IMG/VR virus record: IMGVR_UViG_3300017991_000083
Span: 1-64,000 of that record
Strand: one strand, 5' to 3'
Source: a virus
Length of the DNA stretch: 64,000 bases
Within the stretch, counting starts at the first letter, position 1. Each line of letters begins with the position of its first letter. The notes beneath the pieces are model-generated. The model did not search any database. It saw only the letters and a list, made by a program, of their open reading frames with translations, and was not told the DNA's origin. The translations under genes were made by a program, and so were the position numbers. This document shows, piece by piece, positions 3,665 to 57,246 of the stretch.

Positions 3665-3862
3665 ATGAGGGCAGTTACAAGGGCCCGGCTACGGGCAGAG
3701 GCGAAGCGCATCGGCACCGCCCAGGCCCGCCGGCGCATCAACCGCCTGAAGGACACACATCCCTACCTGACAGAGAAGGAGCTGGAGTCCATCGAAGCGG
3801 ACCTCCAGCTCTCCTACATCGCAGGATTCACCCGCGGACTTGCCCATCGCAACGACTACTAG
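3665..3862 (+). CDS. Small basic helical protein; the only credible plus-strand gene
   Basis: 65 aa (MRAVTRARLRAEAKR...); fills otherwise non-coding space; its TAG overlaps the convergent patatin TAG (CTAG 3859-3862). Confidence 0.6.
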   Translation: MRAVTRARLRAEAKRIGTAQARRRINRLKDTHPYLTEKELESIEADLQLSYIAGFTRGLAHRNDY

Positions 3863-4815
3863 GTCATCGGAGCACGCCGATAACAGTCCTCAAACTCGAT
3901 GAGGACCTGCCAGGCCTTCTCACGGCCGGCGTCGTAGAGCTTCCCGCATGACTTGAAGTCACGCGGAGAGAGCTTGCGGCCCTCCTGGTTGTGGAAGATG
4001 ACGAGCCACCCTCGACGCGGGCAGTAGCGCACGTTCTCGGAGACGAACTCTCCCCACCCCTCGATCTCCTGCTTGTACTCCTCGTAGGAGATCTTCTCGC
4101 GGGCCTCCGCACTCCACTCCCAGGGCCAGAACTTCGCCTGGTCTTCGACGGGCGACATGCCCGCGTACCCCAGGATCGAGACGAACGTGATCGTGTCGGG
4201 CCCACAGAGCTCGTCCATGATCGGGATCTTGTTCAACATGCAGGCAGCGTCGCCCCAATAGGCCCCCCGCCACTTCACCTGAGGGTAGAGCCCGGGGACT
4301 GCCATGCTGGTGATGACCGCCTCCAGCGGCGGCATCGAGGGATCGATACCGGGCCCAAACATCTCACGACCCGAACGACTGTAGCAGGACACCCCGACGT
4401 AGAGTGGGACCTCGAGAAGGTCCCACTTCGGGGGCAGGAACAGGTCCAGGTACTTCGCCAGAGGCTCAGGATTCAGGACGTGACTACGCCACTTCCGACG
4501 CAGGAACCCGATGAGCAGGCTCAGATTGTAGTCCCCGAACGACGAGCGCTTGACACTGTGCCACCACTCTCCGAGAACCTCCGGGGGCATTCCGTAGGCC
4601 CAATGCGAGAGGTTGAACGCCCCGATGCTGTTGCCGACCAGGGCCTTCAGCGTGAGAGGTTCCATCGCCCTCCGCTCGAGCCACCATCGGACGGACTCGA
4701 TGTGCCCGCCCTGAAGACAGCCCTTGTTCCCGCCACCTGTCCCGACAAACACGACGTTTGTCGGCCGACGGAACAGCGGCGCCAGTGGCGACGGCCCGAA
4801 TACATCCGCGATCAT
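3859..4815 (-). CDS. Patatin-like phospholipase
   Basis: GTGGGNKG oxyanion loop, GNSIG (GxSxG) nucleophile, SMAVPGLYP and catalytic Asp in WGDAA; ATG at 4815 with GAGGAGG SD. Confidence 0.85.
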   Translation of the reverse strand: MIADVFGPSPLAPLFRRPTNVVFVGTGGGNKGCLQGGHIESVRWWLERRAMEPLTLKALVGNSIGAFNLSHWAYGMPPEVLGEWWHSVKRSSFGDYNLSLLIGFLRRKWRSHVLNPEPLAKYLDLFLPPKWDLLEVPLYVGVSCYSRSGREMFGPGIDPSMPPLEAVITSMAVPGLYPQVKWRGAYWGDAACMLNKIPIMDELCGPDTITFVSILGYAGMSPVEDQAKFWPWEWSAEAREKISYEEYKQEIEGWGEFVSENVRYCPRRGWLVIFHNQEGRKLSPRDFKSCGKLYDAGREKAWQVLIEFEDCYRRAPMT

Positions 4816-4816
4816 G

Positions 4817-5569
4817 TCAGTCCTCCTCACCGAAACGTGACAGCTCGGCCTCGCGGTCGCGACGCGCCGCCCGCTTCTTCTCCCTGGCGCGACGATCCTT
4901 CGTCCGTCTCCGCGCCCGCTGCAACTCGCGCTTCTCCGCGTCGGCAGTCTGCCCGCTCACGTCCTCGAACTGAGCGTCGATGATCCCCTCTCCTCCCGTG
5001 CTCGTGAACCGCAGATCCGAAAGGATTCTATCTTGCAGGACCGTCCGCTTCGCGCAGGACCCACAGACGTCGTCGACGATGAACGCGAGCTGGCGCATCA
5101 TCGACGTCACATCGGACATCGTGAGGAACGCGCCGACCTTGACCTGCATCTCGATGATCGCCTTGAACGTCTTACGGATCTCGGCGCTCAACTGGATGAG
5201 GAGACGGATCTTGGGCTGGTTCTCTTCGGTGAGCCAATCGGACGGGCTCTCGGGAAGCGACCCGTAGATGTGTCCGAGCAGCCCCTTGAGAGAGAGCAGC
5301 TCAGCAGACAGATGGAAGAGCTCCGGATGCTGCCGGAGCTCCTCAGTCTTCTCTGCGAGTGAGAGGGTATAACTCTTGCTGTAGAGGCCGTGCTTGATAG
5401 GGCCTCCGGGACTGGCCCCGCCGTGGAACTTGCACCGGCCCGTGCCTACGTGGTCTGTGCCGAAGCCGGCCTGGAGACTACAGTAGCCTCCACTCCGGTT
5501 GACTGCGTTGCAGGTTTCCGTCGGTTCCCGCATCGGGAGCGTCGTCTTGCGGTCGCTGTTGCCGCCCAT
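4817..5569 (-). CDS. HGGxSTG-type Zn-finger protein, probable terminase small subunit
   Basis: C..C..GRCKFHGGAS..P.KHGLYSK followed by a helical body. Confidence 0.65.
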   Translation of the reverse strand: MGGNSDRKTTLPMREPTETCNAVNRSGGYCSLQAGFGTDHVGTGRCKFHGGASPGGPIKHGLYSKSYTLSLAEKTEELRQHPELFHLSAELLSLKGLLGHIYGSLPESPSDWLTEENQPKIRLLIQLSAEIRKTFKAIIEMQVKVGAFLTMSDVTSMMRQLAFIVDDVCGSCAKRTVLQDRILSDLRFTSTGGEGIIDAQFEDVSGQTADAEKRELQRARRRTKDRRAREKKRAARRDREAELSRFGEED

Positions 5570-30779: not shown

Positions 30780-31391
30780 CTAGGAGAAACTCTCTGGTCG
30801 GAACGGGACCCTGGCCGGATCGAGACAGGCTGCCCACATGTGACGCTTCTTCTTCGTCGTCGTCGTGAGCTTCGCCCGGTGCTCGTAACGCTCCTTCGCG
30901 CACTGATACCAGGGCCGTTCAGCGTCGTGCAGCAGCAGGATCCCGTTCGGCTTGAGGAGAGTCCGGGACCTGATAACGCATCGCCGACGGAAGCGGCCGT
31001 CGACAATGACGATGTCGAACTTCTGACGCTTGATCGCACTCTCCGGGACGTCCTTGAGCTCCTCGGGATCTCCGTCTAGCCAGGGGAGCGCGATGTAGGT
31101 GTTCCCGTTCGTGTTCAGGGGCATGAAGTGGACGGTGACGGCCCCTTTCGGTATCTTCTCTTCCTTGACGCTGACCGCCACCTTGCCGCGGACGCGCTTG
31201 TTCCAGCTCTGGTGATGTTCGATGGACCGCCAGCGGAACCGGACCCCGAGCTTGTGCAGGAGCTCGGCGCACATGAGCGTACTGCCGCCGGAGCCCCACT
31301 CGAGGATCTCGAGCGGCTGGCCGGTCTCGGCGTAGGCCCGCATCACTTCCCGGAGAATCTCTATGTCGTCGGGGTCCATCCAGGGCTTCAT
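30780..31391 (-). CDS. Class I SAM-dependent methyltransferase (not a DNA MTase)
   Basis: ILEWGSGGST, SIEH, FDIVIVDGRFR, LKPNGILLLHD; no DPPY or PC motif. Confidence 0.85.
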   Translation of the reverse strand: MKPWMDPDDIEILREVMRAYAETGQPLEILEWGSGGSTLMCAELLHKLGVRFRWRSIEHHQSWNKRVRGKVAVSVKEEKIPKGAVTVHFMPLNTNGNTYIALPWLDGDPEELKDVPESAIKRQKFDIVIVDGRFRRRCVIRSRTLLKPNGILLLHDAERPWYQCAKERYEHRAKLTTTTKKKRHMWAACLDPARVPFRPESFS

Positions 31392-32047
31392 AGCTGGCTC
31401 ATGTAGCCGGCGACCTTCCGCCGGAACTCGTAGGGGTCGAGGTTCTCGCCGGGACACATCTTCCTGTAGACCTTCTCGCCGCTCGGACCCATGCTCCACC
31501 CGGTCCCCTGGAGCTCGCGATGGAACACGGCGCCCGTCGACGGTAGGCCGAGCTCGTGCAGGACCCAGGCGACGGTCTTCGCCGCTGCTGCCCACTTCAT
31601 CTCCGGGAGATTCGAGATGCCGTCATAGTCGATGGCGACCGCGAGCGAGGTCTTGTTCCAGGATGCAACGTGCCAGGCCCGAACGTCGTAGTCGAGACAC
31701 CAGTGAACGACGCAGTCCCCACCCACAAACTCGATGACATAGTGATAGGTGATCGTCGGACAACCCTCGTTCGGGTTGATGTGGCATTCGGGGCTCGTGT
31801 CGTAGAGCGCCAGGTCGTAGACGTCGGCCGCGGGCTTGTCGTCGTCGGCCGTGCAGTGCAGCACAACGCGCTCGATGACGTCGACCGGGCGCCGGGGGAT
31901 CGGCAGGGTCGGATGCGCGTACTCGCCCTGCATCTCTTCGCGGATGTCAGAGAACTTTACACTCTCGCCGAGCAGATCTGCCAGGCTACTGAATGTCTTC
32001 TTCTGTCCCAAGATGAGCCTTATCCAGTTGAGGAATCGCGTCCACAT
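31388..32047 (-). CDS. N-acetylmuramoyl-L-alanine amidase (endolysin)
   Basis: VLHCT, YHY, AWH, FHRE, CPG Zn-amidase_2 motifs. Confidence 0.9.
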   Translation of the reverse strand: MWTRFLNWIRLILGQKKTFSSLADLLGESVKFSDIREEMQGEYAHPTLPIPRRPVDVIERVVLHCTADDDKPAADVYDLALYDTSPECHINPNEGCPTITYHYVIEFVGGDCVVHWCLDYDVRAWHVASWNKTSLAVAIDYDGISNLPEMKWAAAAKTVAWVLHELGLPSTGAVFHRELQGTGWSMGPSGEKVYRKMCPGENLDPYEFRRKVAGYMSQL

Positions 32048-45386: not shown

Positions 45387-45742
45387 TAGCTATACCCGCC
45401 CTCTCCGTAAGCGTCCATGTAGACCTGCTTGTGGTGATCCTTCACGCCGCCTGGTCGATTGTCGACATAGCGGACGATGAACGTCTCGCCTGTGACCTCC
45501 TGGGTCAGAATGTCGTCGACCTTGACTATCGCCGTCGGCAGCATAAACCCGAGATGGGAGCTCGACCCGATGACGCCGCCGACGCCGGCCTCTGCGGCCC
45601 CCTTGTTGCGCGTGATGCGGATGGGCTGATCGGTCGCCGCGAGCCGAGGGCCAGTGGCGATGTCGCCTGTGGCCGTGGTCGCCTGCGCCGGCACCCGCGC
45701 TATGCTCACCCGCTCGGGGAGTAGCCCCACCTTGATTGCCAT
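45386..45742 (-). CDS. Head closure (stopper) protein
   Basis: Synteny; beta-rich; ..DIL...GETFIV...HH. Confidence 0.7.
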   Translation of the reverse strand: MAIKVGLLPERVSIARVPAQATTATGDIATGPRLAATDQPIRITRNKGAAEAGVGGVIGSSSHLGFMLPTAIVKVDDILTQEVTGETFIVRYVDNRPGGVKDHHKQVYMDAYGEGGYS

Positions 45743-46722
45743 CAGACCATCCCGTAGCCGTACTTCTGAACCACGAGCTTCATCATCCTCTGGACGCCGC
45801 CCGTGACCTTATCTCCGAACTTGGACTCGACCATCTTGAGATCCTGGCCGAACGTCGCCTCGTAGTCGGCCATGACGATGCTCTTCACGCCGAGCGCACT
45901 CACTGAGGCCTGCTCCTCCTCCAGGAGCCAGACCTGGGCCCGGAACGCGACCAGCATGTTCGCGAGCATCCTTACGTCGCTTGGGACCTCGGTGTAGCCG
46001 TAGGTGTACTGCACGTCGACGTTGACCGGGCCCTTCGTGAAGTAGGAGTAGGTATCGCTCACGAGCCGGATGCGCCCGTCGGCCGTGTAGACGTGGTAGT
46101 GGTCGCTCGAGATGGTCGTGGGCGTCGAGGAAGTCACGCCGTTGATGCAGTCCCTAAGGCGCGTCACTGAGAGAACAGGCCAATGCCTGAGGATCACAGT
46201 GTCCTGGTCGTCGCGGTCGATGTCATGAACCTCGGTGCCGGCATCGTTGGCGTAGAAGTCATGCTGGCATTCCTGGTCGATGATAGTCTTTGCCCAATCG
46301 CGCCAGGTCTCCTTGATGTCGTCGACGGTGACTCCCTCGACAAGCTCCACAACCTCAGCCTTACTGTCGTAAGGATTTGTGTAGGCAGCCGCCCCGCCGG
46401 TCGTGACCTCGAAGTATTCCGTCCTGGCCGTGGCAGCTATCAGATTCCCGTTGACCTCGAAGTACCACACGATCCGCCAGTTGGACCCTACGGTCGCGTC
46501 GACCGGCAGCGTGTAGCCCGTGAACTGGTAGTGGCCCTCTGCGAGCCTGGTGATGTTGCTGTTGTCCGTCTCCTCGTGGACCAGGGTCCCGCCCTGGTCA
46601 TAGATCTTGAGAGTGGGCTCGGTCCCGCCGGCGTAGCCGTCGGGGTCGACGAGCGCCCCGCCCTCAGACACGTAGATGTAGATGTCGAGGTTGACGGCGT
46701 TGCCCTGTGCAAATGTCAGCAT
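45742..46722 (-). CDS. Head-tail adaptor with extra N-terminal Ig-like domain
   Basis: LRHWPVLSV, V.VQYTYGYTEVPSDV typical of gp6/gp15-like adaptors. Confidence 0.8.
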   Translation of the reverse strand: MLTFAQGNAVNLDIYIYVSEGGALVDPDGYAGGTEPTLKIYDQGGTLVHEETDNSNITRLAEGHYQFTGYTLPVDATVGSNWRIVWYFEVNGNLIAATARTEYFEVTTGGAAAYTNPYDSKAEVVELVEGVTVDDIKETWRDWAKTIIDQECQHDFYANDAGTEVHDIDRDDQDTVILRHWPVLSVTRLRDCINGVTSSTPTTISSDHYHVYTADGRIRLVSDTYSYFTKGPVNVDVQYTYGYTEVPSDVRMLANMLVAFRAQVWLLEEEQASVSALGVKSIVMADYEATFGQDLKMVESKFGDKVTGGVQRMMKLVVQKYGYGMV

Positions 46723-48143: not shown

Positions 48144-48866
48144 CTAAGCCATCCTTGGAGCGAATCGGGTGACGACGTGGATGTCCGCGCCGTCGACCCT
48201 ATCTACGCGACTGTTCGGCGGGATGATCCCCTCTGCCATCAGAAGCCTTGACAGGGCCATCAGGCAGCCGCCGTAGAAGGTCAGGTTGCCGCTTGGCAGC
48301 TTGTTGAGGGCACCCTGGCGAACGTAGCCGACCTGCAGATAGCATCGATAGCCGCCCTTGCTCCGCCAGCCCTTGAACCTCCAGAGCAGGGAACCAGGCG
48401 GATCGGTGAAGCCCCCAACGTCGCGGAGCTCACAGTCTGTGTCGCCATCGATGTTGATGCACGAGAAGTCTGTGGCGTCGATAGTGAAAACGGCCGATGA
48501 CCCTGGGTTCGAGGCCCAAGACTTGCTCCCCCAATAGTTCCCGGTTGGGAAGCCGTAGTCGCCGAGATCGAGCGCCCCCCCGATGATATCGTGGTCGTAG
48601 TACAGGCCCACGACATACGTCCCGTTGTACCCTATTGGCTCCGTGACGGAGTGTGTTTCGCACGTGAACCTGGCCAAGTCCAGGACAACGCCGCCGGGAA
48701 TGCTCGACGTGTCGAACGAATAGTAGGCCCTCCACTCCACAGGGTCGACCGAGTCGCCCTGCTGGACGTTCGGATTCCACTCCGTTCCCGTGAAGTCGTG
48801 CGCTGACACCCCGTCCTTGATGTAGCCCCAAACGTCGGGGTTGAAAGAGTCGATGACGAGCGACAT
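48144..48866 (-). CDS. Virion beta-sandwich protein (DNRLRE/CBM-like)
   Basis: RAYYSFDTSSIP...A.F pattern; first gene after the late regulatory motif. Confidence 0.6.
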   Translation of the reverse strand: MSLVIDSFNPDVWGYIKDGVSAHDFTGTEWNPNVQQGDSVDPVEWRAYYSFDTSSIPGGVVLDLARFTCETHSVTEPIGYNGTYVVGLYYDHDIIGGALDLGDYGFPTGNYWGSKSWASNPGSSAVFTIDATDFSCINIDGDTDCELRDVGGFTDPPGSLLWRFKGWRSKGGYRCYLQVGYVRQGALNKLPSGNLTFYGGCLMALSRLLMAEGIIPPNSRVDRVDGADIHVVTRFAPRMA

Positions 48867-48961: not shown

Positions 48962-50065
48962 TTAGCCGACGATGTTCTTCGAGCTGCCCTCTACGAGCTC
49001 GAGCGCGGTCCGGCCCCGGCCCAGGCTCCGGTTCAGTTCCTCGTACCAGGTCGCGTGAGCCGCGAGCAGTTCTTCTGCCCGGTGCCTGTATGTGTGGCCT
49101 GCCAGAACGAGCTCGCGGCCGGCCCTGGCGATCCGGGTTCGGTCCTGATCCCGACGCGGGTCGACGAGGTCCTGGATGACTGCCACTGCCTTTTCTATCC
49201 GGTTGAACGAGACCAGGTTCACGCCGTTCTTGAACAGGCCCCCCATCCCCTCGAAGGCATAGGTCACATAGACAGCCGTGCCGCAACACATCACGTTCCA
49301 GGTCCGGTTGCTCGTGTACTGGTCGATGTCGTTGTAGGCGTTGATTCCGAGCACAACCTTGGCGCTTGCGACTGCGATCGAGAAGTCCTTCTCATAGACC
49401 TTCCCGAAACAGGGGGCCCCGGCACCCCAATTCGTACCGTAGACCCGCAGCTTCAGGTCCGACTGTGCCACCAGGGACATGAGCTTCGCCCGCAGCGCCG
49501 AGTCCGGGAAGTGGGAGTAGTTTCCGCCCATGAATGCCACATCGCACTCGAACGCGGGGTCGGGCTTGACGGGCTTGTAGACATCCGGGTCACTGGCCGT
49601 GTGCCAGGTCATCACCCTGGGCACACCCAGGCGCCGGTAGCACTCGAACTGCAGCTCATCGGCGTTGCTCAGGAGCAGCATGTCACACACCGCTCCGAGC
49701 CTGGCGATGTCCCGCACCGCCATCCCGCGCTGATCCCCAAAGAACAGGGCGACGAATGTGCGAGGGGCGCTCTGCTTGATCGAGCGGACTATCGCGGGGT
49801 CGAGTCGCTCGCCCTTGTTGATGAGCACGATGTCAGGCTTCCAGGATCCGACCTTTTGCAGAACCTCTATTCCCATCCCCTCACCGCCGAGCTTCTTGGC
49901 TCTCGAACGGTAGTCGTAGTCGATGACCTCACATCCGGCCTGGCGAAGGCCCCGCGTACGCAGGTGATCTGATACGTGGTCCTGCAGGAAGGTCCCGATG
50001 TGGAAGACCTTCAGCGGCCCGTCACTTTCCGACCTTGTCGGGGATGAACTCCGGAGCGGCGCCAT
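48962..50065 (-). CDS. CgeB-like GT-B glycosyltransferase
   Basis: PDIVLINKG, DP.VYKP, DVAFMG, YG..W, SNRTWNVMCCG, HTYRHRAEEL. Confidence 0.88.
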   Translation of the reverse strand: MAPLRSSSPTRSESDGPLKVFHIGTFLQDHVSDHLRTRGLRQAGCEVIDYDYRSRAKKLGGEGMGIEVLQKVGSWKPDIVLINKGERLDPAIVRSIKQSAPRTFVALFFGDQRGMAVRDIARLGAVCDMLLLSNADELQFECYRRLGVPRVMTWHTASDPDVYKPVKPDPAFECDVAFMGGNYSHFPDSALRAKLMSLVAQSDLKLRVYGTNWGAGAPCFGKVYEKDFSIAVASAKVVLGINAYNDIDQYTSNRTWNVMCCGTAVYVTYAFEGMGGLFKNGVNLVSFNRIEKAVAVIQDLVDPRRDQDRTRIARAGRELVLAGHTYRHRAEELLAAHATWYEELNRSLGRGRTALELVEGSSKNIVG

Positions 50066-50810
50066 CTGGACTCCTCTTGATGCGGCCTCGCTTGGCCTGG
50101 TCTCTGAACGCGGTGTACTTCTTGTAGGCCTGGCGCTTGCACTTGGGGTGCTTCGGGTGGTCCATCGCCTCGACATAGGAGTGGATCTTCCCCTTCTCGT
50201 CTTCCCACCTGTTCGCGAGCTGTGCAACCTGCCAGCCCTTGGCCCGGACCCTGGCACAGAGCGGCGTTCCTGCGAAGCCCATGACCTGTCGCGGTCCGAG
50301 CTGGAACCCGCCGGCGTCTACGAGCGCCTTCTTGTGGCACACCCAATGGATCGGGCAGAGCATCTTCCTGAAGATGACCGTGATGTCGCCTCGGGTCTCG
50401 GTCCCGATGACGTTCGTCTTCCTGGGCTCCCCGTGATTGTGCCCGTTCACAAAAGCGAGCTCAGGGAATAGGCGTAGCGCCTCCATACAGATTTCGAGCC
50501 AGCCCGGGTTGTACCAGGCGTCGTCGTCGCTGATGGCGATTATCTTGCTCTTCGTCGCCTTGATCCCGATCATCCGGGCCTTCGCCGAGCCCTTGTTGTC
50601 GTCGAGCAGGATGGCAGTGAGCTTTCCCTGGTCCTGCATCTCCTGGAGCCATTCGCGGGTGCCGTCGGCGGAGTTGTTGTCGACCACGATGATACGGTGC
50701 GGATGGAGAGTGTTCTCGATCATCGAGCCGATGCAGTCCTTGAGATAGAGCAGCCGGTTGAACGTGATGACAACGATGTCGACCACGGGGCGATCGTCCT
50801 TAGCTGCCAT
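50022..50810 (-). CDS. GT2 glycosyltransferase
   Basis: VITFNR, VVDNNSADGT, N.G.A.A, SDDD DxD motif. Confidence 0.9.
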   Translation of the reverse strand: MAAKDDRPVVDIVVITFNRLLYLKDCIGSMIENTLHPHRIIVVDNNSADGTREWLQEMQDQGKLTAILLDDNKGSAKARMIGIKATKSKIIAISDDDAWYNPGWLEICMEALRLFPELAFVNGHNHGEPRKTNVIGTETRGDITVIFRKMLCPIHWVCHKKALVDAGGFQLGPRQVMGFAGTPLCARVRAKGWQVAQLANRWEDEKGKIHSYVEAMDHPKHPKCKRQAYKKYTAFRDQAKRGRIKRSPDGAAPEFIPDKVGK

Positions 50811-51642
50811 TGTCTTCTCCCTTCTCCACTGGCTTTGGCACGAACTCGGGATCTCCGCCGAGCTTCGCACGGCGGGCGAACTCCTTGTATCCCGTGCTCT
50901 CATAGTAGTCATGGTGCGACTTCGGATGAGACGGATGGGCCATGTGTTCGACGTACCGAACGCCTTCGGCATCTGCGTTGCCGAGCTCTGTATAGGGCCG
51001 GATGAGTCGGTTGACGTTCCCTCGGTCCGCCAGTGTCTCGATAGTGAACTTCGCAGAATGCCCTCCGATCTCGTGCAGCTTGCCGAACGGGAACCCGCTC
51101 CCGAGCAGCTTGCCACGTGCGATCTTCATGCCGCCGGCCTCCTCAACGATGGAGCGTCGGAAGACCAGATGAAACGTCCGAAGCGAGGTCCGGAAGTCTA
51201 TCGAGATGCCCTTGCGCCGTTCCGTTCTGACGTACTCCAACGTGCGACGATGGTCGGCCGACGTCACAGAGACTTCGGGCCAGAGCTCGAGAATCCTCAT
51301 GCAAACGGTTAGCCAGCCCGGGTTGTACCAGGCATCGTCATCGCTGATGGCCACGATCTCGCAGTCCGAGAGCTCCATGCCGGCGTAGAGCCCCTTGATG
51401 CGTCCGACGTTCTTCTCGAGGAAGACCGGAATGAGATTGCCCTCTGCAGCCTGTTCCTGGAGCCATTCTACAGTCCCATCCTCGGAATGGTTGTCGACCA
51501 CGATGAGCTTCCCGTAGGGGTAGCGCGTGTTCTCGCGGATTGACCGGATACACTCCTTGAGGTAGAGCAGCCGGTTGAAGGTAACTACGATGATGTCGAC
51601 GGGCTCTGTGGGTGTTCCGTCATCCCATTCCGCATGGCTCAT
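50800..51642 (-). CDS. GT2 glycosyltransferase (paralog)
   Basis: VVTFNR, VVDNHSEDGT, AISDDDAWYNPGWL. Confidence 0.9.
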   Translation of the reverse strand: MSHAEWDDGTPTEPVDIIVVTFNRLLYLKECIRSIRENTRYPYGKLIVVDNHSEDGTVEWLQEQAAEGNLIPVFLEKNVGRIKGLYAGMELSDCEIVAISDDDAWYNPGWLTVCMRILELWPEVSVTSADHRRTLEYVRTERRKGISIDFRTSLRTFHLVFRRSIVEEAGGMKIARGKLLGSGFPFGKLHEIGGHSAKFTIETLADRGNVNRLIRPYTELGNADAEGVRYVEHMAHPSHPKSHHDYYESTGYKEFARRAKLGGDPEFVPKPVEKGEDNGS

Positions 51643-51643
51643 G

Positions 51644-52801
51644 TCAGACCCCCATCATGTGCGACGCGACCTCGACGATGGTCTCGGCCCGCGCCTGGAA
51701 CGTGTGCTTGTGCGCTATCTCCATGCCCTTCGCCGAGAGCTCGGCGCGTGCCGCGTCGTCGGCCAGGAACCGATGCACGAGACGGTTCAGGTCGTCGGCA
51801 TTCCGGTACTCGGGAACGGTCTCCTTCATGAACGACTTCAGACCCTTGGCCCGATCACTGATACAGAACCCGCCACTGGCCAGGACGTCGAGAATCCTGA
51901 ACGACAGGAAGCCTTCCTTGGCCATCGGCTTATGATGGTCATTGAGCGAGATGGCGGTAGAGTTGTAGAGGTCGGGCAGGCGCTCATAGGGCCAGTACTG
52001 GCCGGCGTACCAGCTCAGATCGAACCCGGGCTTTGACGGCCACTTGCATCCGATGACGACCGGCGTGTACCCGACCGGCTCCAGGTCCCGGATGATCTCG
52101 CGCCCAAAGCCCAGGGACCCGCGGGCGTTCCCAACGAACACGACGTTGTGCGAGAACGGCGGTTTCTTCTTCGGCGGCCGCATATCTGTACAGACCTCGA
52201 GCGGATGGACCGGCGGGCCCATGTCCCTGATCTGACTGATGAACGACGGCGACAGACAGAACACTACGTCGTACTTCGCCATCTCCTCAGCGTCCATCTT
52301 CTGAGGATGAGAGTGGAACCAGCAGACGTTGAAGCTGCTCGGGTTGTAGAAGAACGGGTACTTGTCCTTCTGCGGGAACGGGTGCCCGAACAGGTAGACC
52401 GTCACATCAGCGAGCTCCGGGAAGACCTCAACGGTGTGCCCCATCGCCAGGAACCCGGCCTCGAGCCGTTTCTTGACCCACCAGTCGCCCCAACACTCGA
52501 AGGTCCTGGGATCGGTCTCGGCCCAGGTCCTGACGTTGATCGCCAGGCCCTTGATGTTCTTCGAGTTGTTGCGGATCTCCGTGAGCCTCCGTTCCGTCAC
52601 CATCCGAGAGAGACGATTGCGCTCGGCCTTCAGAGCGTCGCGTTGGTTCGACCGACGGCCGCCGTCCACGCCGGCCAGCCTCGCCTCGAGCTTGCGGTCC
52701 TCTTCCGTCTGCTCTCGGAGCGGCTTGTTCACAAAGAGATGTCTTACCCGTTCACGTTCCGCGTCTACCGGATTCAGGAAGTTCTTCGAGCTCTTGGGCA
52801 T
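51644..52801 (-). CDS. CgeB-like GT-B glycosyltransferase
   Basis: WGDWW, VFVGNAR, LNDHH..M...GF.SFRILDVLASGG..ISD, HTFQARA. Confidence 0.88.
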   Translation of the reverse strand: MPKSSKNFLNPVDAERERVRHLFVNKPLREQTEEDRKLEARLAGVDGGRRSNQRDALKAERNRLSRMVTERRLTEIRNNSKNIKGLAINVRTWAETDPRTFECWGDWWVKKRLEAGFLAMGHTVEVFPELADVTVYLFGHPFPQKDKYPFFYNPSSFNVCWFHSHPQKMDAEEMAKYDVVFCLSPSFISQIRDMGPPVHPLEVCTDMRPPKKKPPFSHNVVFVGNARGSLGFGREIIRDLEPVGYTPVVIGCKWPSKPGFDLSWYAGQYWPYERLPDLYNSTAISLNDHHKPMAKEGFLSFRILDVLASGGFCISDRAKGLKSFMKETVPEYRNADDLNRLVHRFLADDAARAELSAKGMEIAHKHTFQARAETIVEVASHMMGV

Positions 52802-53769
52802 CAGAGATTCTCCACTGCCGCGATAACTCGCTTCGCGGCGCCAAGGAACGTCAGGGGCGGGACCTGGGCCCGCATCTTCTCGCAGATCCTCTTTCTGTCA
52901 GCCTCTGTCAGGGACGTCAGGTGCGCGAGTTGTATCCTGGCGTCTGCGGGACTGAAATAGGTCGGCCAGTGAGTCTGGATGGCGCCGTCGTCGGACAGCT
53001 TGACCGGATCAACCAGGGGCAGTCCGCCGGCCGCGATGACGTCGAGGACCTGGTGCTTCAGGAACCCGCGTATCGCCATTGGGGTCTGATGGTCGATGAG
53101 AACGACCTTCGCAGAGTGATAGAGATCCTGCAGGCGCCAGAAGTCATGGTACTTCGCAATCCACCTGTCTCCTGCCCTGTTCCAGTTCCGGCCCCATACC
53201 CCGAACGAGAATGCCAGGTCCCGGCGATCCAACAGATAGTCGGCAACCGGGCGCCCCCCGCGACTAGGCCGGGCGTTGCCGATGAACACCACGTCGGGAC
53301 ACTCTGCGTCGATCTGCGTAGTGGTCTGATTCACGAAATTCTTGCCCTGGATCATCCGGTCGGTGCTCGGTCGGATGAGGACAGGATCGGCTGTGCCGAA
53401 CAGGTGCGAGCAGGGGGGCAGGTACTTGACCACGGCCTCGGCGTCGCGGATCTGCCCGTTGGCCTCCTGTTCTATCCACGTGGCAGATGTGCAGAATACG
53501 ATGCTGTACTTCCGCAGCTCGCTCAGGGTCATCAGTTCGGGATGACTGTAGAACCAGGCTACGTTCAACTTGCCCGGGGGAACGGCCCGCTTGGCCGGCG
53601 CCTTCCCCCAACAGTAGAAGTTCAGATCTGATCGATAGGGATTGTCGACGAGCCGATGCCCGAGCTCCTCGAATGCGTGCCCCATCAGAACCCGGACCCA
53701 ATGATCGCCCCAAAAGGGCTGTGAGGGCCCGGGTTCGTGACTGGACCTGTCGTAGAGATGTATCCGCAC
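52801..53769 (-). CDS. CgeB-like GT-B glycosyltransferase (paralog)
   Basis: WGDHW, WFYSHP, VFIGNAR, IDH...M..RGF....LDVIAAGG. Confidence 0.82.
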   Translation of the reverse strand: MRIHLYDRSSHEPGPSQPFWGDHWVRVLMGHAFEELGHRLVDNPYRSDLNFYCWGKAPAKRAVPPGKLNVAWFYSHPELMTLSELRKYSIVFCTSATWIEQEANGQIRDAEAVVKYLPPCSHLFGTADPVLIRPSTDRMIQGKNFVNQTTTQIDAECPDVVFIGNARPSRGGRPVADYLLDRRDLAFSFGVWGRNWNRAGDRWIAKYHDFWRLQDLYHSAKVVLIDHQTPMAIRGFLKHQVLDVIAAGGLPLVDPVKLSDDGAIQTHWPTYFSPADARIQLAHLTSLTEADRKRICEKMRAQVPPLTFLGAAKRVIAAVENL

Positions 53770-56081
53770 TAGAGCTCCCTGACGTCTGCAACCCCGTAGT
53801 ACATGTGCGTTATCATCCGAGGCGGCAGATCCCCACGGAACGGTTCCGCAGTCCCGCCGCCGGTTGTGGGCTGAGTCTCTTCGCCAGGCTGCCAGTTGGA
53901 GTAGCGGTCCTCAACATTCCGCTCGATGCCGCGGCCGGCATAGTAGCCGAGCTTAGCCCGGATCTTCGAGGTCGGCTGCACGTAGCCGAAGTGGTAGACC
54001 AGTTTGTCTGCCACTACCGCCTCTTTGTAGCCCGTCTCTGAGCGGACCGGGCGGCCCTCGCTGTCGACGAACGTATTGAACGACTTCTCGTGATGGAAGC
54101 CCTGACTCCAGCGCCACATTCTCGGGATCTTCGACTCCCACTGAGGGCAGCCGACAGCGACCGTTGTGAAGTTCGTCCAGAAGTGATGGAAGCCCACGCG
54201 GACGATTGCCAGCTCACGGTCGTCTACGAACATCTTCATGAGGCGAGCGACGTCTTTCGGCTCCCATATCTCGTCGCTATCGACCTTCATGTAGATGTCG
54301 CCCGTCACACGCTTGGCGATCGCGTTCTGCATCTCAACCTTGTCCTTCCACCGATGATCCTTGGGCGGGGGGACGAGAGTGATCTTCTCATCCGGGTCGG
54401 GATAGGCCGCGATCTTCTGGAGTGTCGCATCGGTGCTGGAGCCGCGCTCGTCGGCGTGTTGCCACATCCCTTCGACTGCCCCCTCGACGATGATGATCTC
54501 GTGGGCGAGATCGTAGATGCCGTCGAGCGCCTCCGTGATGTAGGAGTCGCCGTTGAAGACTATCATGCCGACGGAGAGCTTCGGGCCGTAGCCCCCTACC
54601 CGGAAGATGTCGAGGGACTTCTTGGTGCTCGCCTCGATGGTACACCAGTCCAGAATCCGGTCCCGGCCTCGGGCCACAGTCGCTGAGACTTCGGCGCGGT
54701 TTTCTGGCTCGAGCACCCAGGACACCTTTTCCGCGAAGTCGCCAGGGTCGCCCAGGCGTGCGTAGAAGACGCCGTCCCCGTAGGAACCACGGAGCACCGG
54801 GAGATCGTAAGCGACAACGGGCGTGTTCATGTAGAGCGCCTCTTCGGGGGGCATTCCGAACCCCTCGAACATGCTCGGGAACAGCAGTACGTCGGCTTTC
54901 TTGATGGCCTCGAACTTGGAGCGGTCGTCGACAATGCCCTGAACGTCGACGTAGAGATGGTTCTCAGCCCACTCGGGCCTCTTGGCGTCGAGCCTCTTCT
55001 GCTCGTTCGGGCCGACCTTACCCATCACCGTCACATGTGCCGAGCACTGCAGGGTCTCCGCAAGCGCATCGAACACCGCGATCGGGTTCTTGAAGTCGAC
55101 CATCCTGGCACAGAACACGAGCTCGGCCCCGTACTCGGGCTCCTGCTCCCGCTCACGCGCCTCCGCCCTCGAGAGCTCGTCGTCTATCTCGTCCACATCA
55201 TCGAAGATGGGATCGGCGATGCCCGCCAGAGTGGCGTCGGCCACAAGCTGGTTGATCGGCGGCTCGAGCACGAACCAGGGACCCTCGAAATCCGGAAGCC
55301 ACTGTTGGGCCCATCTCGAGCTTACCGCGGACGGACTCACGATCCCGTCGCAGGTGAGCAGGCACTTCTTGTAGTTCGCCCAGTACTCCTCTGTCGCATC
55401 TCTGCCAGACGGATAGGTCATCCCCTTGAAGTTCGGGCTCTCGAAGAGGATCAGGTAACAGGGAATGCCGAAACGCTCGGCGTAGGACTTGGCGAACTGG
55501 CCTCCGATGTTCGGCACACCAATGACGAAGTCGAACTCGTTCTCGGAGATGTCCATCCCCCATCGGGTGTCGACGATGCGCTCGAACCGCTCGAGGTTGT
55601 AGCCAAGGAAGTCCTTCTCGAACGGCGCCGGCGTGTTCGTGATGACCTTGACGTCCATGACCTGGGACAGGATGACGCCAAGCAGATACATTGAGTAGCG
55701 TCCGCCCGTGTAGTGCGGCATCTGCTCCATGAAGATAGCGCAGCTCCGCGGGGCCTTGCTCGGGCCGTAGGTCAGATACTGGCGTTCTGATGGGAGAGGG
55801 ATGAAGAGCGGGCTGGTCGCAAGCGCGACGAGCTGCCCGAGCTTGTGCGAGTCAGCGTTCTCGATGAACTTCTTGGGGATGGTTAGCTGATAGGCAGTAG
55901 GCAGTTCTTCAATGGAGATGTCCGGCACATCCTCATCGGCAGCGATGACGGGGCCGGACTCTACTGGCGTAGGGGCGGTTTCGCCCACAAAGGCCTTGCG
56001 ACTCTCCAGCGGTGCGCCCCCGCCTTCGACGAAGTTCTTTGTGGGCTCGTCCCGCTCGAGGGACCGTTTCGTATCTCCCAT
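53769..56081 (-). CDS. Bifunctional GT4 + GT2 glycosyltransferase
   Basis: GT4 FPSMFEGFGMPPEEA; GT2 LSVGMIVFNG..IIIVEG..S.D.T..KVDSDE..HFGY. Confidence 0.9.
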   Translation of the reverse strand: MGDTKRSLERDEPTKNFVEGGGAPLESRKAFVGETAPTPVESGPVIAADEDVPDISIEELPTAYQLTIPKKFIENADSHKLGQLVALATSPLFIPLPSERQYLTYGPSKAPRSCAIFMEQMPHYTGGRYSMYLLGVILSQVMDVKVITNTPAPFEKDFLGYNLERFERIVDTRWGMDISENEFDFVIGVPNIGGQFAKSYAERFGIPCYLILFESPNFKGMTYPSGRDATEEYWANYKKCLLTCDGIVSPSAVSSRWAQQWLPDFEGPWFVLEPPINQLVADATLAGIADPIFDDVDEIDDELSRAEAREREQEPEYGAELVFCARMVDFKNPIAVFDALAETLQCSAHVTVMGKVGPNEQKRLDAKRPEWAENHLYVDVQGIVDDRSKFEAIKKADVLLFPSMFEGFGMPPEEALYMNTPVVAYDLPVLRGSYGDGVFYARLGDPGDFAEKVSWVLEPENRAEVSATVARGRDRILDWCTIEASTKKSLDIFRVGGYGPKLSVGMIVFNGDSYITEALDGIYDLAHEIIIVEGAVEGMWQHADERGSSTDATLQKIAAYPDPDEKITLVPPPKDHRWKDKVEMQNAIAKRVTGDIYMKVDSDEIWEPKDVARLMKMFVDDRELAIVRVGFHHFWTNFTTVAVGCPQWESKIPRMWRWSQGFHHEKSFNTFVDSEGRPVRSETGYKEAVVADKLVYHFGYVQPTSKIRAKLGYYAGRGIERNVEDRYSNWQPGEETQPTTGGGTAEPFRGDLPPRMITHMYYGVADVREL

Positions 56082-56128
56082 TCCTCCATCGCTTGACCAC
56101 GACGAGCTGCCTGACGGGGCGCTCTAGG

Positions 56129-56497
56129 CTAGAAGACTCCCATGATACCGACGTTGACTGTCGTTGCCGTCGACGCTATCCGGCGGACATAGAAATGGTC
56201 CTCGGGCTCGTCCAGGACGATGTCGAGCGGGGCCGCGACCCCGACCATAACACGCCCGTTCTCGTGCGCTGTGTGATCGGTGCCCCACGAGAACCACACC
56301 GACCAGGCGGTCGAGACCGATCCGTCGACCACAACCCGTATCCTGCGACACGGCTTCGAGAGAACGATCTCAGAGGTCGCGTCGTGAACCACTGCCAGAG
56401 CCTCGCCGCAGCAGACCTTGTTCTGTGGAATGACGATCGCGGCCTTGAGGATACTGTCGCCGTCCTCGAGTTCGTGCTTCCTGACTCCCGGGGGCAT
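56129..56497 (-). CDS. Beta-rich hypothetical protein (possible capsid decoration)
   Basis: 122 aa with GGAGGAGGG SD; downstream of the capsid gene. Confidence 0.55.
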   Translation of the reverse strand: MPPGVRKHELEDGDSILKAAIVIPQNKVCCGEALAVVHDATSEIVLSKPCRRIRVVVDGSVSTAWSVWFSWGTDHTAHENGRVMVGVAAPLDIVLDEPEDHFYVRRIASTATTVNVGIMGVF

Positions 56498-56501
56498 AGT
56501 C

Positions 56502-56798
56502 CTACCCTCCTCCAGATGACATCGCCCGTGCAACGGCTCCCAGGGCGGCCGTTATCTTGTCGAGATTCGCCAGAACGGCAACGATCAGGCCAGTGGACCC
56601 GCCCGATATCGCAGCCCGTCTACTCAGCTCTCCCTTGATGCGCTCGTCAGCCAGGCGGAGATCGATGACCTCCCTCTTGAGCTGCTTGCGCTCCTCTTCG
56701 GCCCGTTCCAGGGCGTTGAGCAGCAGTCGACGGTACTCTGCGAACTCACCGTTGCCGTGCCCGTTCCCGCCTCCGTTGCCGTTGCTAACAGGGACCAT
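56502..56798 (-). CDS. Coiled-coil protein with C-terminal hydrophobic helix (holin-like candidate)
   Basis: LERAEEERKQLKREV coil, then AISGGSTGLIVAVLA. Confidence 0.5.
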   Translation of the reverse strand: MVPVSNGNGGGNGHGNGEFAEYRRLLLNALERAEEERKQLKREVIDLRLADERIKGELSRRAAISGGSTGLIVAVLANLDKITAALGAVARAMSSGGG

Positions 56799-57246
56799 CG
56801 GGCCAGCCCTCCAGCTCCCCAGGGTCTGTGGTGTAGATGATGCCAATCATCCAAGTCTCGCAGTCGGCTATGAAGGTATGGACCTGACCCGGTTCCAGAA
56901 TGGCCTCATCTCCAGGAAGGAGCTCGAAGGACCTGTTGTCTATCGTCAGAGTGCCGCCACCATCCAGGATGATGAGCCACTCCTTGCCTACATGTGCATG
57001 GTCCGGGAACGATGCCCCGGCCGCGAAGTACGCCTTCTGCCCGGCGCTCACGCGATTCTTCCACAGCCCGAACCCGAATACGGTTCCGCATCCGGGCTGA
57101 GATAGATCTACAAATGATACACCCTTCGGCGCGAGTTCGAGCTCGCTCAGGCGAGGCGTCAGAGCGCGGAGTTTGTCCAGCGGGGTAGACTCCAGGCTCT
57201 GCTCTTGGTCGTGCTGTTCAAGTGCTGGTGCTGAATGCTCAGGCAT
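56785..57246 (-). CDS. Cupin-domain protein
   Basis: FPDHAH..KEW.IILDG...L.PGD....PGQVH. Confidence 0.88.
   Translation of the reverse strand: MPEHSAPALEQHDQEQSLESTPLDKLRALTPRLSELELAPKGVSFVDLSQPGCGTVFGFGLWKNRVSAGQKAYFAAGASFPDHAHVGKEWLIILDGGGTLTIDNRSFELLPGDEAILEPGQVHTFIADCETWMIGIIYTTDPGELEGWPDGPC

Follow-up and report, generated by a model that had tools for sequence, protein, structure and literature searches.

A capsid-linked glycosyltransferase block in an uncultured phage lineage, and its predicted role in virion glycosylation

The virus genome of IMG/VR record IMGVR_UViG_3300017991_000083 codes for a block of six glycosyltransferase (GT) genes with seven catalytic domains, which lies downstream of the major capsid gene inside the structural operon. 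The window analyzed here is the first 64 kb of this record (positions 1 to 64,000); the complete genome comprises 91,366 bp with 123-bp direct terminal repeats. A preliminary description of the window had suggested a survey of synteny, and this bears out the linkage: in 29 of the 31 related metagenomic loci with at least 1 kb of DNA downstream of the capsid gene, a GT gene is the first or second gene after it and on the same strand, across a range of 28-63% guanine+cytosine (GC) content and 34-84% capsid identity. We think it probable that these enzymes glycosylate the virion in the cytoplasm of the infected cell, with a GT4+GT2 fusion protein as the core enzyme and the C-terminus of the capsid protein as the best candidate for the acceptor. 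New here, as judged by comparison of sequences, are the lineage-wide adjacency of capsid and GT genes, the exchange of the GT in that place for an unrelated one, the occurrence of the fusion in all ten close relatives and its apparent restriction to the lineage, the constant terminal serine of capsid homologues of at least 43% identity, and a KNF[VL] motif common to three of the GTs.

Pfam and six-frame searches of the whole genome recover the six contiguous GT genes, their seven catalytic domains and the neighboring cupin gene of the preliminary description at the same places (Table 1), and these GT domains are the only ones in the genome. The tight packing or overlap of the genes holds as well: from the fusion gene onward the junctions range from -44 to +1 nucleotides, with Shine-Dalgarno-like sequences present, and the search for a promoter or terminator inside the block gave no credible signal above the shuffled background. 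The clustering of all seven GT domains in a single block, translationally coupled and within the structural operon, supports a role of their products in the making of the virion. The placement between capsid and neck genes is confirmed with the amendment that two small open reading frames (ORFs) separate the cupin gene from the fusion gene and that two more lie between the last GT gene and the head-tail adaptor gene.

Table 1. Features of the glycosyltransferase block, its surroundings and other genes of the virus genome (window positions unless marked; aa, amino acids; SAM, S-adenosylmethionine)
Feature	Position	Strand	Match	Remark
GT4+GT2 fusion, 770 aa	53769..56081	-	Glycos_transf_1 PF00534, 55 bits (cut-off 26); Glycos_transf_2 PF00535, 30 bits	
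CgeB-like GT-B, short alpha-type paralogue, 322 aa	52801..53769	-	PF13524, 21 bits (below cut-off 25)	
CgeB-like GT-B, alpha-type, 385 aa	51644..52801	-	PF13524, 70 bits	100-aa N-terminal extension
GT2 (GT-A), 280 aa	50800..51642	-	PF00535, 79 bits (six-frame match)	DDD motif
GT2 paralogue, 262 aa	50022..50810	-	PF00535, 88 bits	DDD motif; start taken at MAAKDD
CgeB-like GT-B, beta-type, ~367 aa	48962..50065	-	Glyco_trans_1_2 PF13524, 70 bits	start uncertain
TKNFV	56036-56050	-		residues 14-18 of fusion
GKNFV	53335-53349	-		internal insert of 322-aa paralogue
SKNFL	52783-52797	-		starts N-terminal extension of 385-aa protein, motif from residue 5
Major capsid protein, HK97 fold, 328 aa	57323..58309	-	PF05065, E 6e-19	ends ...NLEHPSSTS
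Cupin_2 protein, 153 aa	56785..57246	-	PF07883, 42 bits, E 7e-11	HxH...E...H metal motif
Small ORF, up to 114 aa	56502..56846	-		Gly/Asn-rich stretch, coiled-coil-like region, one hydrophobic segment
Beta-sandwich (jelly-roll-like) protein, 122 aa	56129..56497	-		AlphaFold2 pLDDT 67; adjoins fusion gene
240-aa protein	48144..48866	-	ESM Atlas feature score 0.94, TM 0.63 to CBM96 clusters	directly after GT block
Repeat protein, 467 aa	46738..48141	-		three long repeats (...AISTTESNIRG.DSD.L.D.SDEI...), 18% Ser+Thr
Head-tail adaptor	45742-46722	-	PHROG 442, E 9e-15	downstream boundary of block
Putative tail tube, 150 aa	43899-44351			23% Ser+Thr
Portal	62574-64055	-		
Methyltransf_24 class I SAM methyltransferase, stronger copy	genome 64448-65110		29 bits	between terminase and portal genes, just past window end
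Terminase	genome 65031-66833	-		first of late genes
Methyltransf_24 class I SAM methyltransferase, weak match	30780..31595	-	PF13578, 22 bits	

The catalytic motifs of the fusion protein are intact. The E-x7-E motif in FEGFGMPPxE of its GT4 domain and the DxDE motif of its GT2 domain are invariant across eight homologues (E406, E414 and D601/D603/E604 in the window's protein). The nearest solved structures of the GT4 domain by sequence are PimA and MshA (PDB 2gej, 4n9w, 7qsg; E ~7e-6), in a match that spans residues 302-504 of the fusion only; a search for solved structures with sequence matches to the CgeB-like GTs gave none. The CgeB-like proteins split into alpha and beta subfamilies, each of which is conserved in relatives: homologues of the 322-aa alpha-type protein occur in the loci L004 and L042 and in other loci of what we call clade I below, and the beta type is also kept in L005, L006, L007 and L009. 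Despite its sub-cut-off Pfam score, the 322-aa protein is a paralogue of the 385-aa one (30% identity, BLASTP E 3e-32), and the two small GT2 proteins are likewise paralogues, with 37% identity. A hydropathy scan finds no hydrophobic segment in any of the GTs, which we take to be soluble.

Three adjacent members of the block share a short peptide of the form KNF[VL]. In the predicted proteome of 26,343 residues, the pattern KNF[VLI] has exactly three copies, against 0.17 expected from composition, and all three fall in the fusion protein and the two alpha-type CgeB-like proteins. Relatives, even those of 28-38% GC, keep a looser version, [STGD]-K-N-[FIL]-[ILVT], close to the N-terminus in both of these enzyme families. 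This peptide may serve as a docking element that brings the three enzymes to a common partner.

Homologues of the capsid protein in metagenomes form 103 clusters, and the gene contexts of the relatives were taken from IMG/VR loci and one contig (L042) of a metagenome-assembled genome (MAG). Clade I consists of ten IMG/VR loci and this contig. In all ten of its loci with enough downstream DNA, a GT4+GT2 fusion, 32-70% identical to that of the window, follows the capsid gene on the same strand, usually after 0.2-1 kb and in L014 after 3.9 kb. The remainder of the cassette varies. The numbers of CgeB-like and GT2 genes differ, and there are further genes for DegT-type sugar aminotransferases (E 1e-74 to 1e-96), a polysaccharide pyruvyl transferase, additional GT2 enzymes and several SAM methyltransferases, among which is an enzyme of the rhamnosyl-O-methyltransferase type. 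From these additions it follows that the product is probably a decorated glycan that varies within the lineage. The 27 loci of clade II have capsids 34-44% identical to that of the window. They had at first sight seemed partly free of GTs, a reading that we reject, as Pfam and an all-against-all comparison show that the gene right after the capsid gene codes for a GT. Here it is a protein of 845-936 aa in which the same GT4 domain is fused to a different GT2-like domain (GT2b) or, in an alternative form, GT2b alone (~420 aa), with a Rossmann-type protein of ~300 aa usually next. Profiles of GT2b and of the GT2 domain of clade I (GT2a) show no detectable relationship other than a common fold (hhalign probability 0.1), and in L037 all three domains, GT4, GT2a and GT2b, are found in one protein.

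In a search of 5.8 billion proteins, with scoring confined to the 8000 candidates that had most words in common with the query, the fusion family comes to 35 clusters at E <= 1e-10. At least 11 of the 35 lie on contigs exactly as long as contigs that bear capsid homologues, which we take as co-residence; this would make the fusion enzyme a hallmark of the lineage and not a wandering moron, and its family appears restricted to this lineage. Within clade I and the window (L004-L014, L042, window) the capsids are 55-84% identical while GC runs from 28% to 63%, which would mean either a very wide spread of hosts or rapid compositional drift. Homologues of the capsid (P0025/P0116) and of the fusion GT (P0061) are also deposited in MAGs labelled Hodarchaeales and Lokiarchaeota. 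We set these Asgard archaeal labels aside as evidence on the host and treat them as probable binning, because the phage of the window has bacterial-type DnaE, DnaN, DnaB, DnaG and RecA. In a distant relative, the capsid-linked cassette codes for a 334-aa protein (L040:15301-16305) with a weak match to the MptE-like family of Maf flagellin glycosyltransferases (28 bits, below the cut-off of 34.6), which hints at a protein-directed GT. The head module of another distant relative codes for a protein with a concanavalin-A-like lectin domain (L036:13561-14223; Laminin_G_3, E 1e-32).

The capsid protein itself offers a candidate site of attachment. Its AlphaFold2 model (predicted local distance difference test, pLDDT, 84; predicted TM-score 0.80), with the capsids of T5 and DT57C as best Foldseek matches, has its last strand at residues 315-319, followed by a nine-residue coil (320-328). 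A terminal serine is present in 91 of 91 capsid homologues of at least 43% identity, with a tail of the form L[DE]x[PA][ST]xxS-COOH, and the tails of clade II are likewise rich in serine and threonine (for example ...NLSTTIVS). The C-terminus points to the outside in HK97-fold shells, such as those of T7 10B display and the encapsulins. In mycobacteriophages, glycans reportedly sit on capsid and tail-tube subunits at their C-terminal ends (as cited in PMC12619734). Position and conservation together make the Ser/Thr-rich C-terminal tail the best candidate acceptor.

A simple scheme may be put as follows. The GT block would be expressed together with the late head genes, and its soluble enzymes would draw on nucleotide sugars of the host, building the glycan directly on assembled or assembling virion protein with neither a lipid carrier nor an export step. 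Initiation most likely falls to the GT4+GT2 fusion, and extension and branching would be the task of the CgeB-like GT-B enzymes and of both GT2 paralogues. The capsid tail ending in HPSSTS, presumably exposed, is the most likely acceptor, and docking through KNF[VL] could bring three of the enzymes to a common partner. The preliminary description had likewise proposed a cytoplasmic assembly line for a virion glycan; the capsid linkage, the soluble enzymes and the lack of export genes speak for it, while its acceptor stays a candidate. Virion glycosylation gains strength because the adjacency is lineage-wide, the GT is replaced in place, the enzymes are soluble, and machinery for export and genes for DNA hypermodification are both lacking. 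A bolder version, which we regard as tentative and rather doubtful, is that head maturation throughout this large lineage includes, as an ancestral and almost obligatory step, the glycosylation of the capsid tail with its invariant serine; it would be carried out by a lineage-specific, capsid-adjacent GT with shuffled domains (GT4+GT2a, GT4+GT2b or GT2b), and several enzymes would be recruited to the particle through KNF[VL].

Several points weigh against glycosylation of the capsid. The acceptor is proposed from its position and conservation, and the invariant C-terminal serine could be structural. A terminal Ser/Thr is seen in 19 of 19 loci with GT4 against 3 of 10 without it, but this association is inseparable from descent because the presence of GT4 switches only twice on the capsid tree, so that an independent-pairs test had one or two usable pairs. 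The shared gene order, too, could partly reflect common descent. Cells also use soluble GT4 and GT2 enzymes on lipid-linked or small-molecule acceptors, and a comparison with 50,697 phage records detects no sequence relationship of the GTs of the block to any GT there, those of the mycobacteriophages with proven glycosylation included.

It is possible, if unlikely, that the glycan is carried by another virion component: the putative tail tube, the 467-aa repeat protein or the 122-aa jelly-roll protein. The first two are rich in serine and threonine (23% and 18%), the jelly-roll ORF stays beside the fusion gene in L004 and L042, and mycobacteriophages glycosylate their tail tube too, as a work cited in PMC12619734 is there said to report. 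Yet the repeat protein, like the 240-aa protein next to it, has no homologue in the relatives that keep the GTs, the jelly-roll ORF is confined to a high-GC subgroup, and the capsid gene alone is linked to a GT throughout the lineage. We also give little credence to a late remodelling of a host glycoconjugate (cell-wall polymer, capsule precursor, glycolipid or storage glycan) through lipid carriers or exporters of the host, for which a block to superinfection, an aid to lysis or a diversion of sugar pools would be possible purposes. GT4, GT2, pyruvyl transferase and DegT aminotransferase genes are indeed typical of loci for cell-envelope polysaccharides, and PimA, the nearest solved structure by sequence, is a GT4 with a lipid acceptor. 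Such a pathway fits poorly with the lack of an initiating phosphoglycosyl transferase, a flippase, a polymerase or any other multi-pass membrane protein, with the location of the genes among those of the head and not in an early or lysogeny module, and with a capsid linkage that holds across hosts of 28-63% GC, whose envelopes must differ. By a crude hydropathy scan, no ORF of the genome reaches five hydrophobic segments, and for this reason no flippase, polymerase, permease or membrane GT is to be expected, in agreement with the preliminary description. The same account had noted the lack of genes for nucleotide-sugar synthesis and for base hydroxymethylation. This too holds genome-wide: the nucleotidyltransferase (PF00483) and epimerase (PF01370) profiles have no match in the complete genome, while all control genomes matched, nor does that of thymidylate synthase and hydroxymethylase (PF00303), whose positive controls matched.

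Glycosylation of phage DNA as an escape from restriction is highly improbable. Phage GTs are classically known as DNA-modifying enzymes, as in T4. Hypermodification by multiple GTs is on record as well (Pyle et al. 2024, as cited in PMC12619734). The genome, however, has no homologue of thymidylate synthase or dCMP hydroxymethylase, the cupin has a 3His-1Glu motif rather than the HxD...H of TET/JBP enzymes, and the GT genes are part of the late head operon. Moreover, 6-bp palindromes are strongly avoided, which is the pattern expected of unprotected DNA: the ratio of observed to expected counts is below 0.5 for 46% of them against 2% of non-palindromic hexamers. Many of them are missing altogether, for example AACGTT, AAGCTT, ACCGGT, ACGCGT, CAGCTG, CCATGG and CGCGCG, where 20-44 copies of each are expected, and TTAA is likewise absent from the genome. 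The DNA therefore probably escapes restriction by the loss of sites and not by a bulky base modification. Glycosylation of a host protein or small molecule, as a means of take-over or counter-defense, is very improbable too. The GT4 domain does match PF20706, 'GT4 in conflict systems' (E 7e-8), but this match underlies a stronger general GT4 match, and six late, co-expressed and capsid-linked enzymes are not what such a role would lead one to expect.

The cupin gene is present as the preliminary description had it, but its inclusion in the system does not stand: tblastn finds no match in any of the related loci, including the closest relatives L042 and L004, and because it is missing from these two we regard it as accessory and, on comparative grounds, outside the conserved system. 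Its sequence matches in the PDB are generic cupins and quercetinase. We reject a role as sugar epimerase or isomerase (RmlC/FdtA), given these generic Cupin_2 matches, the metal motif and its absence from the nearest relatives, and the motif likewise leads us to reject a dioxygenase of the TET/JBP type. The small ORF beside it has no Pfam or PHROG match, and L042 has a similar small ORF in the equivalent position. The 122-aa protein has homologues in L004 (41%) and L042 (58%) and is kept in high-GC relatives only; fold searches gave weak matches to jelly-roll coat proteins, CBM6 and uncharacterized phage proteins, and it is possibly a capsid decoration protein. The 240-aa protein, with no match in Pfam or PHROG, resembles in its predicted structure a carbohydrate-binding beta-sandwich of the CBM96 type and, as a lead only, could be a lectin-like virion protein. 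The N-terminal domain of the 467-aa repeat protein resembles that of the neighboring adaptor protein and its look-alike clusters are found in phages only; it is probably a head or neck fiber.

The late genes on the minus strand run from the terminase through a Methyltransf_24 protein, the portal, a MuF protein, a 629-aa ChaB-containing protein and an acidic scaffold-like protein to the major capsid protein. After the capsid gene come the GT block, the head-tail adaptor, neck proteins, the putative tail tube, chaperones and a tape measure of 1170 aa. The weaker methyltransferase, in the window, is a possible candidate for a glycan methyltransferase. The window has ~62% GC and no tRNA genes, and the replication genes of the phage are of bacterial type, with a split DnaE with a PHP domain, DnaN, DnaB, DnaG and RecA. 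A gene for a patatin-like phospholipase (3859-4830 of the window; PF01734, E 2e-11) occurs in the early/replication region. No cultured relative was found by megablast and tblastn against the phage records, in which the sole matches are a weak one of the capsid to Bacillus phage Flasso and weak GT2 matches to gut contigs.

To our knowledge, the only phages whose own enzymes have been shown to glycosylate the virion are a few mycobacteriophages, in which the glycans shield the particles from antibodies. In the uncultured lineage described here, spread over hosts that differ greatly, a GT stays beside the capsid gene and the other genes of the cassette vary, a pattern suggesting that capsids coated with sugars are frequent in nature and subject to diversifying selection. 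This would bear on the stability and adhesion of phages, on their recognition by the immune system in therapy, and on the annotation of 'CgeB' and other GT genes in viromes as 'auxiliary metabolic genes'. Were the capsid tail indeed an ancestral site of glycosylation, virion glycosylation would be a widespread phage trait and not a peculiarity of mycobacteriophages. Even with no cultured host there are targets for the bench, namely the capsid protein with its defined tail of nine residues, a single core enzyme and a motif that is a candidate for docking.

The closest functional parallel would be the systems that Freeman et al. 2023 reportedly described in mycobacteriophages Corndog, Che8 and Myrna. 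As in these, phage-encoded soluble GTs and a methyltransferase occur inside a block of structural genes; in the mycobacteriophages the GTs are made in infected cells and are not virion components. The phage of the window further resembles Corndog in coding for a Pol III beta clamp and, near the portal gene, for a class I methyltransferase. The enzyme families differ (GT4+GT2 fusion and CgeB-like here), and tblastn of the fusion, one CgeB-like GT and one GT2 against the phage records gave no match to the GTs of Che8, Corndog, Myrna or any actinophage. The genes also lie between portal and protease there and after the capsid gene here, they number three or four there against six with seven domains here, and the present lineage is uncultured, of 28-63% GC, with glycosylation that is predicted. 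The block is larger than the four-gene system of Corndog (gp35-38 in the gene map of PMC4351075), as the preliminary description had held of known systems in general, but it is not exceptional within its lineage, as L006 and other relatives carry clusters at least as large.

A second comparison is with the half-domain family PF13524, whose members include the C-terminal GT-B half of CgeB and three proteins of the block. The GT4 domain of the fusion, for its part, shares the E-x7-E motif of retaining GT-B enzymes with PimA and MshA, which in contrast act on a lipid or inositol acceptor. CgeB of Bacillus subtilis acts in the maturation of the spore surface and is tied to the glycosylation of a proteinaceous surface layer, and where viral contigs bear CgeB-like genes these are usually taken for auxiliary genes of sporulation, a reading that does not fit the context of this block. 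The likeness to CgeB drawn in the preliminary description holds at the level of the domain family only (70 bits, with one paralogue below the cut-off); on surface-layer glycosylation by CgeB, see also PMC13436329. The third system is that of chlorovirus PBCV-1, whose cytoplasmic GTs, including the multidomain A064R and A111/114R, are virus-encoded and glycosylate the capsid protein Vp54 (PMC7019647). Compared by description, PBCV-1 differs in that it is a eukaryotic giant virus, its glycans are N-linked, its capsid protein has a double jelly-roll and its GT genes are scattered, and it is alike in that several soluble GTs, some of them multidomain and with methyltransferases, build an unusual capsid glycan in the cytoplasm independently of export.

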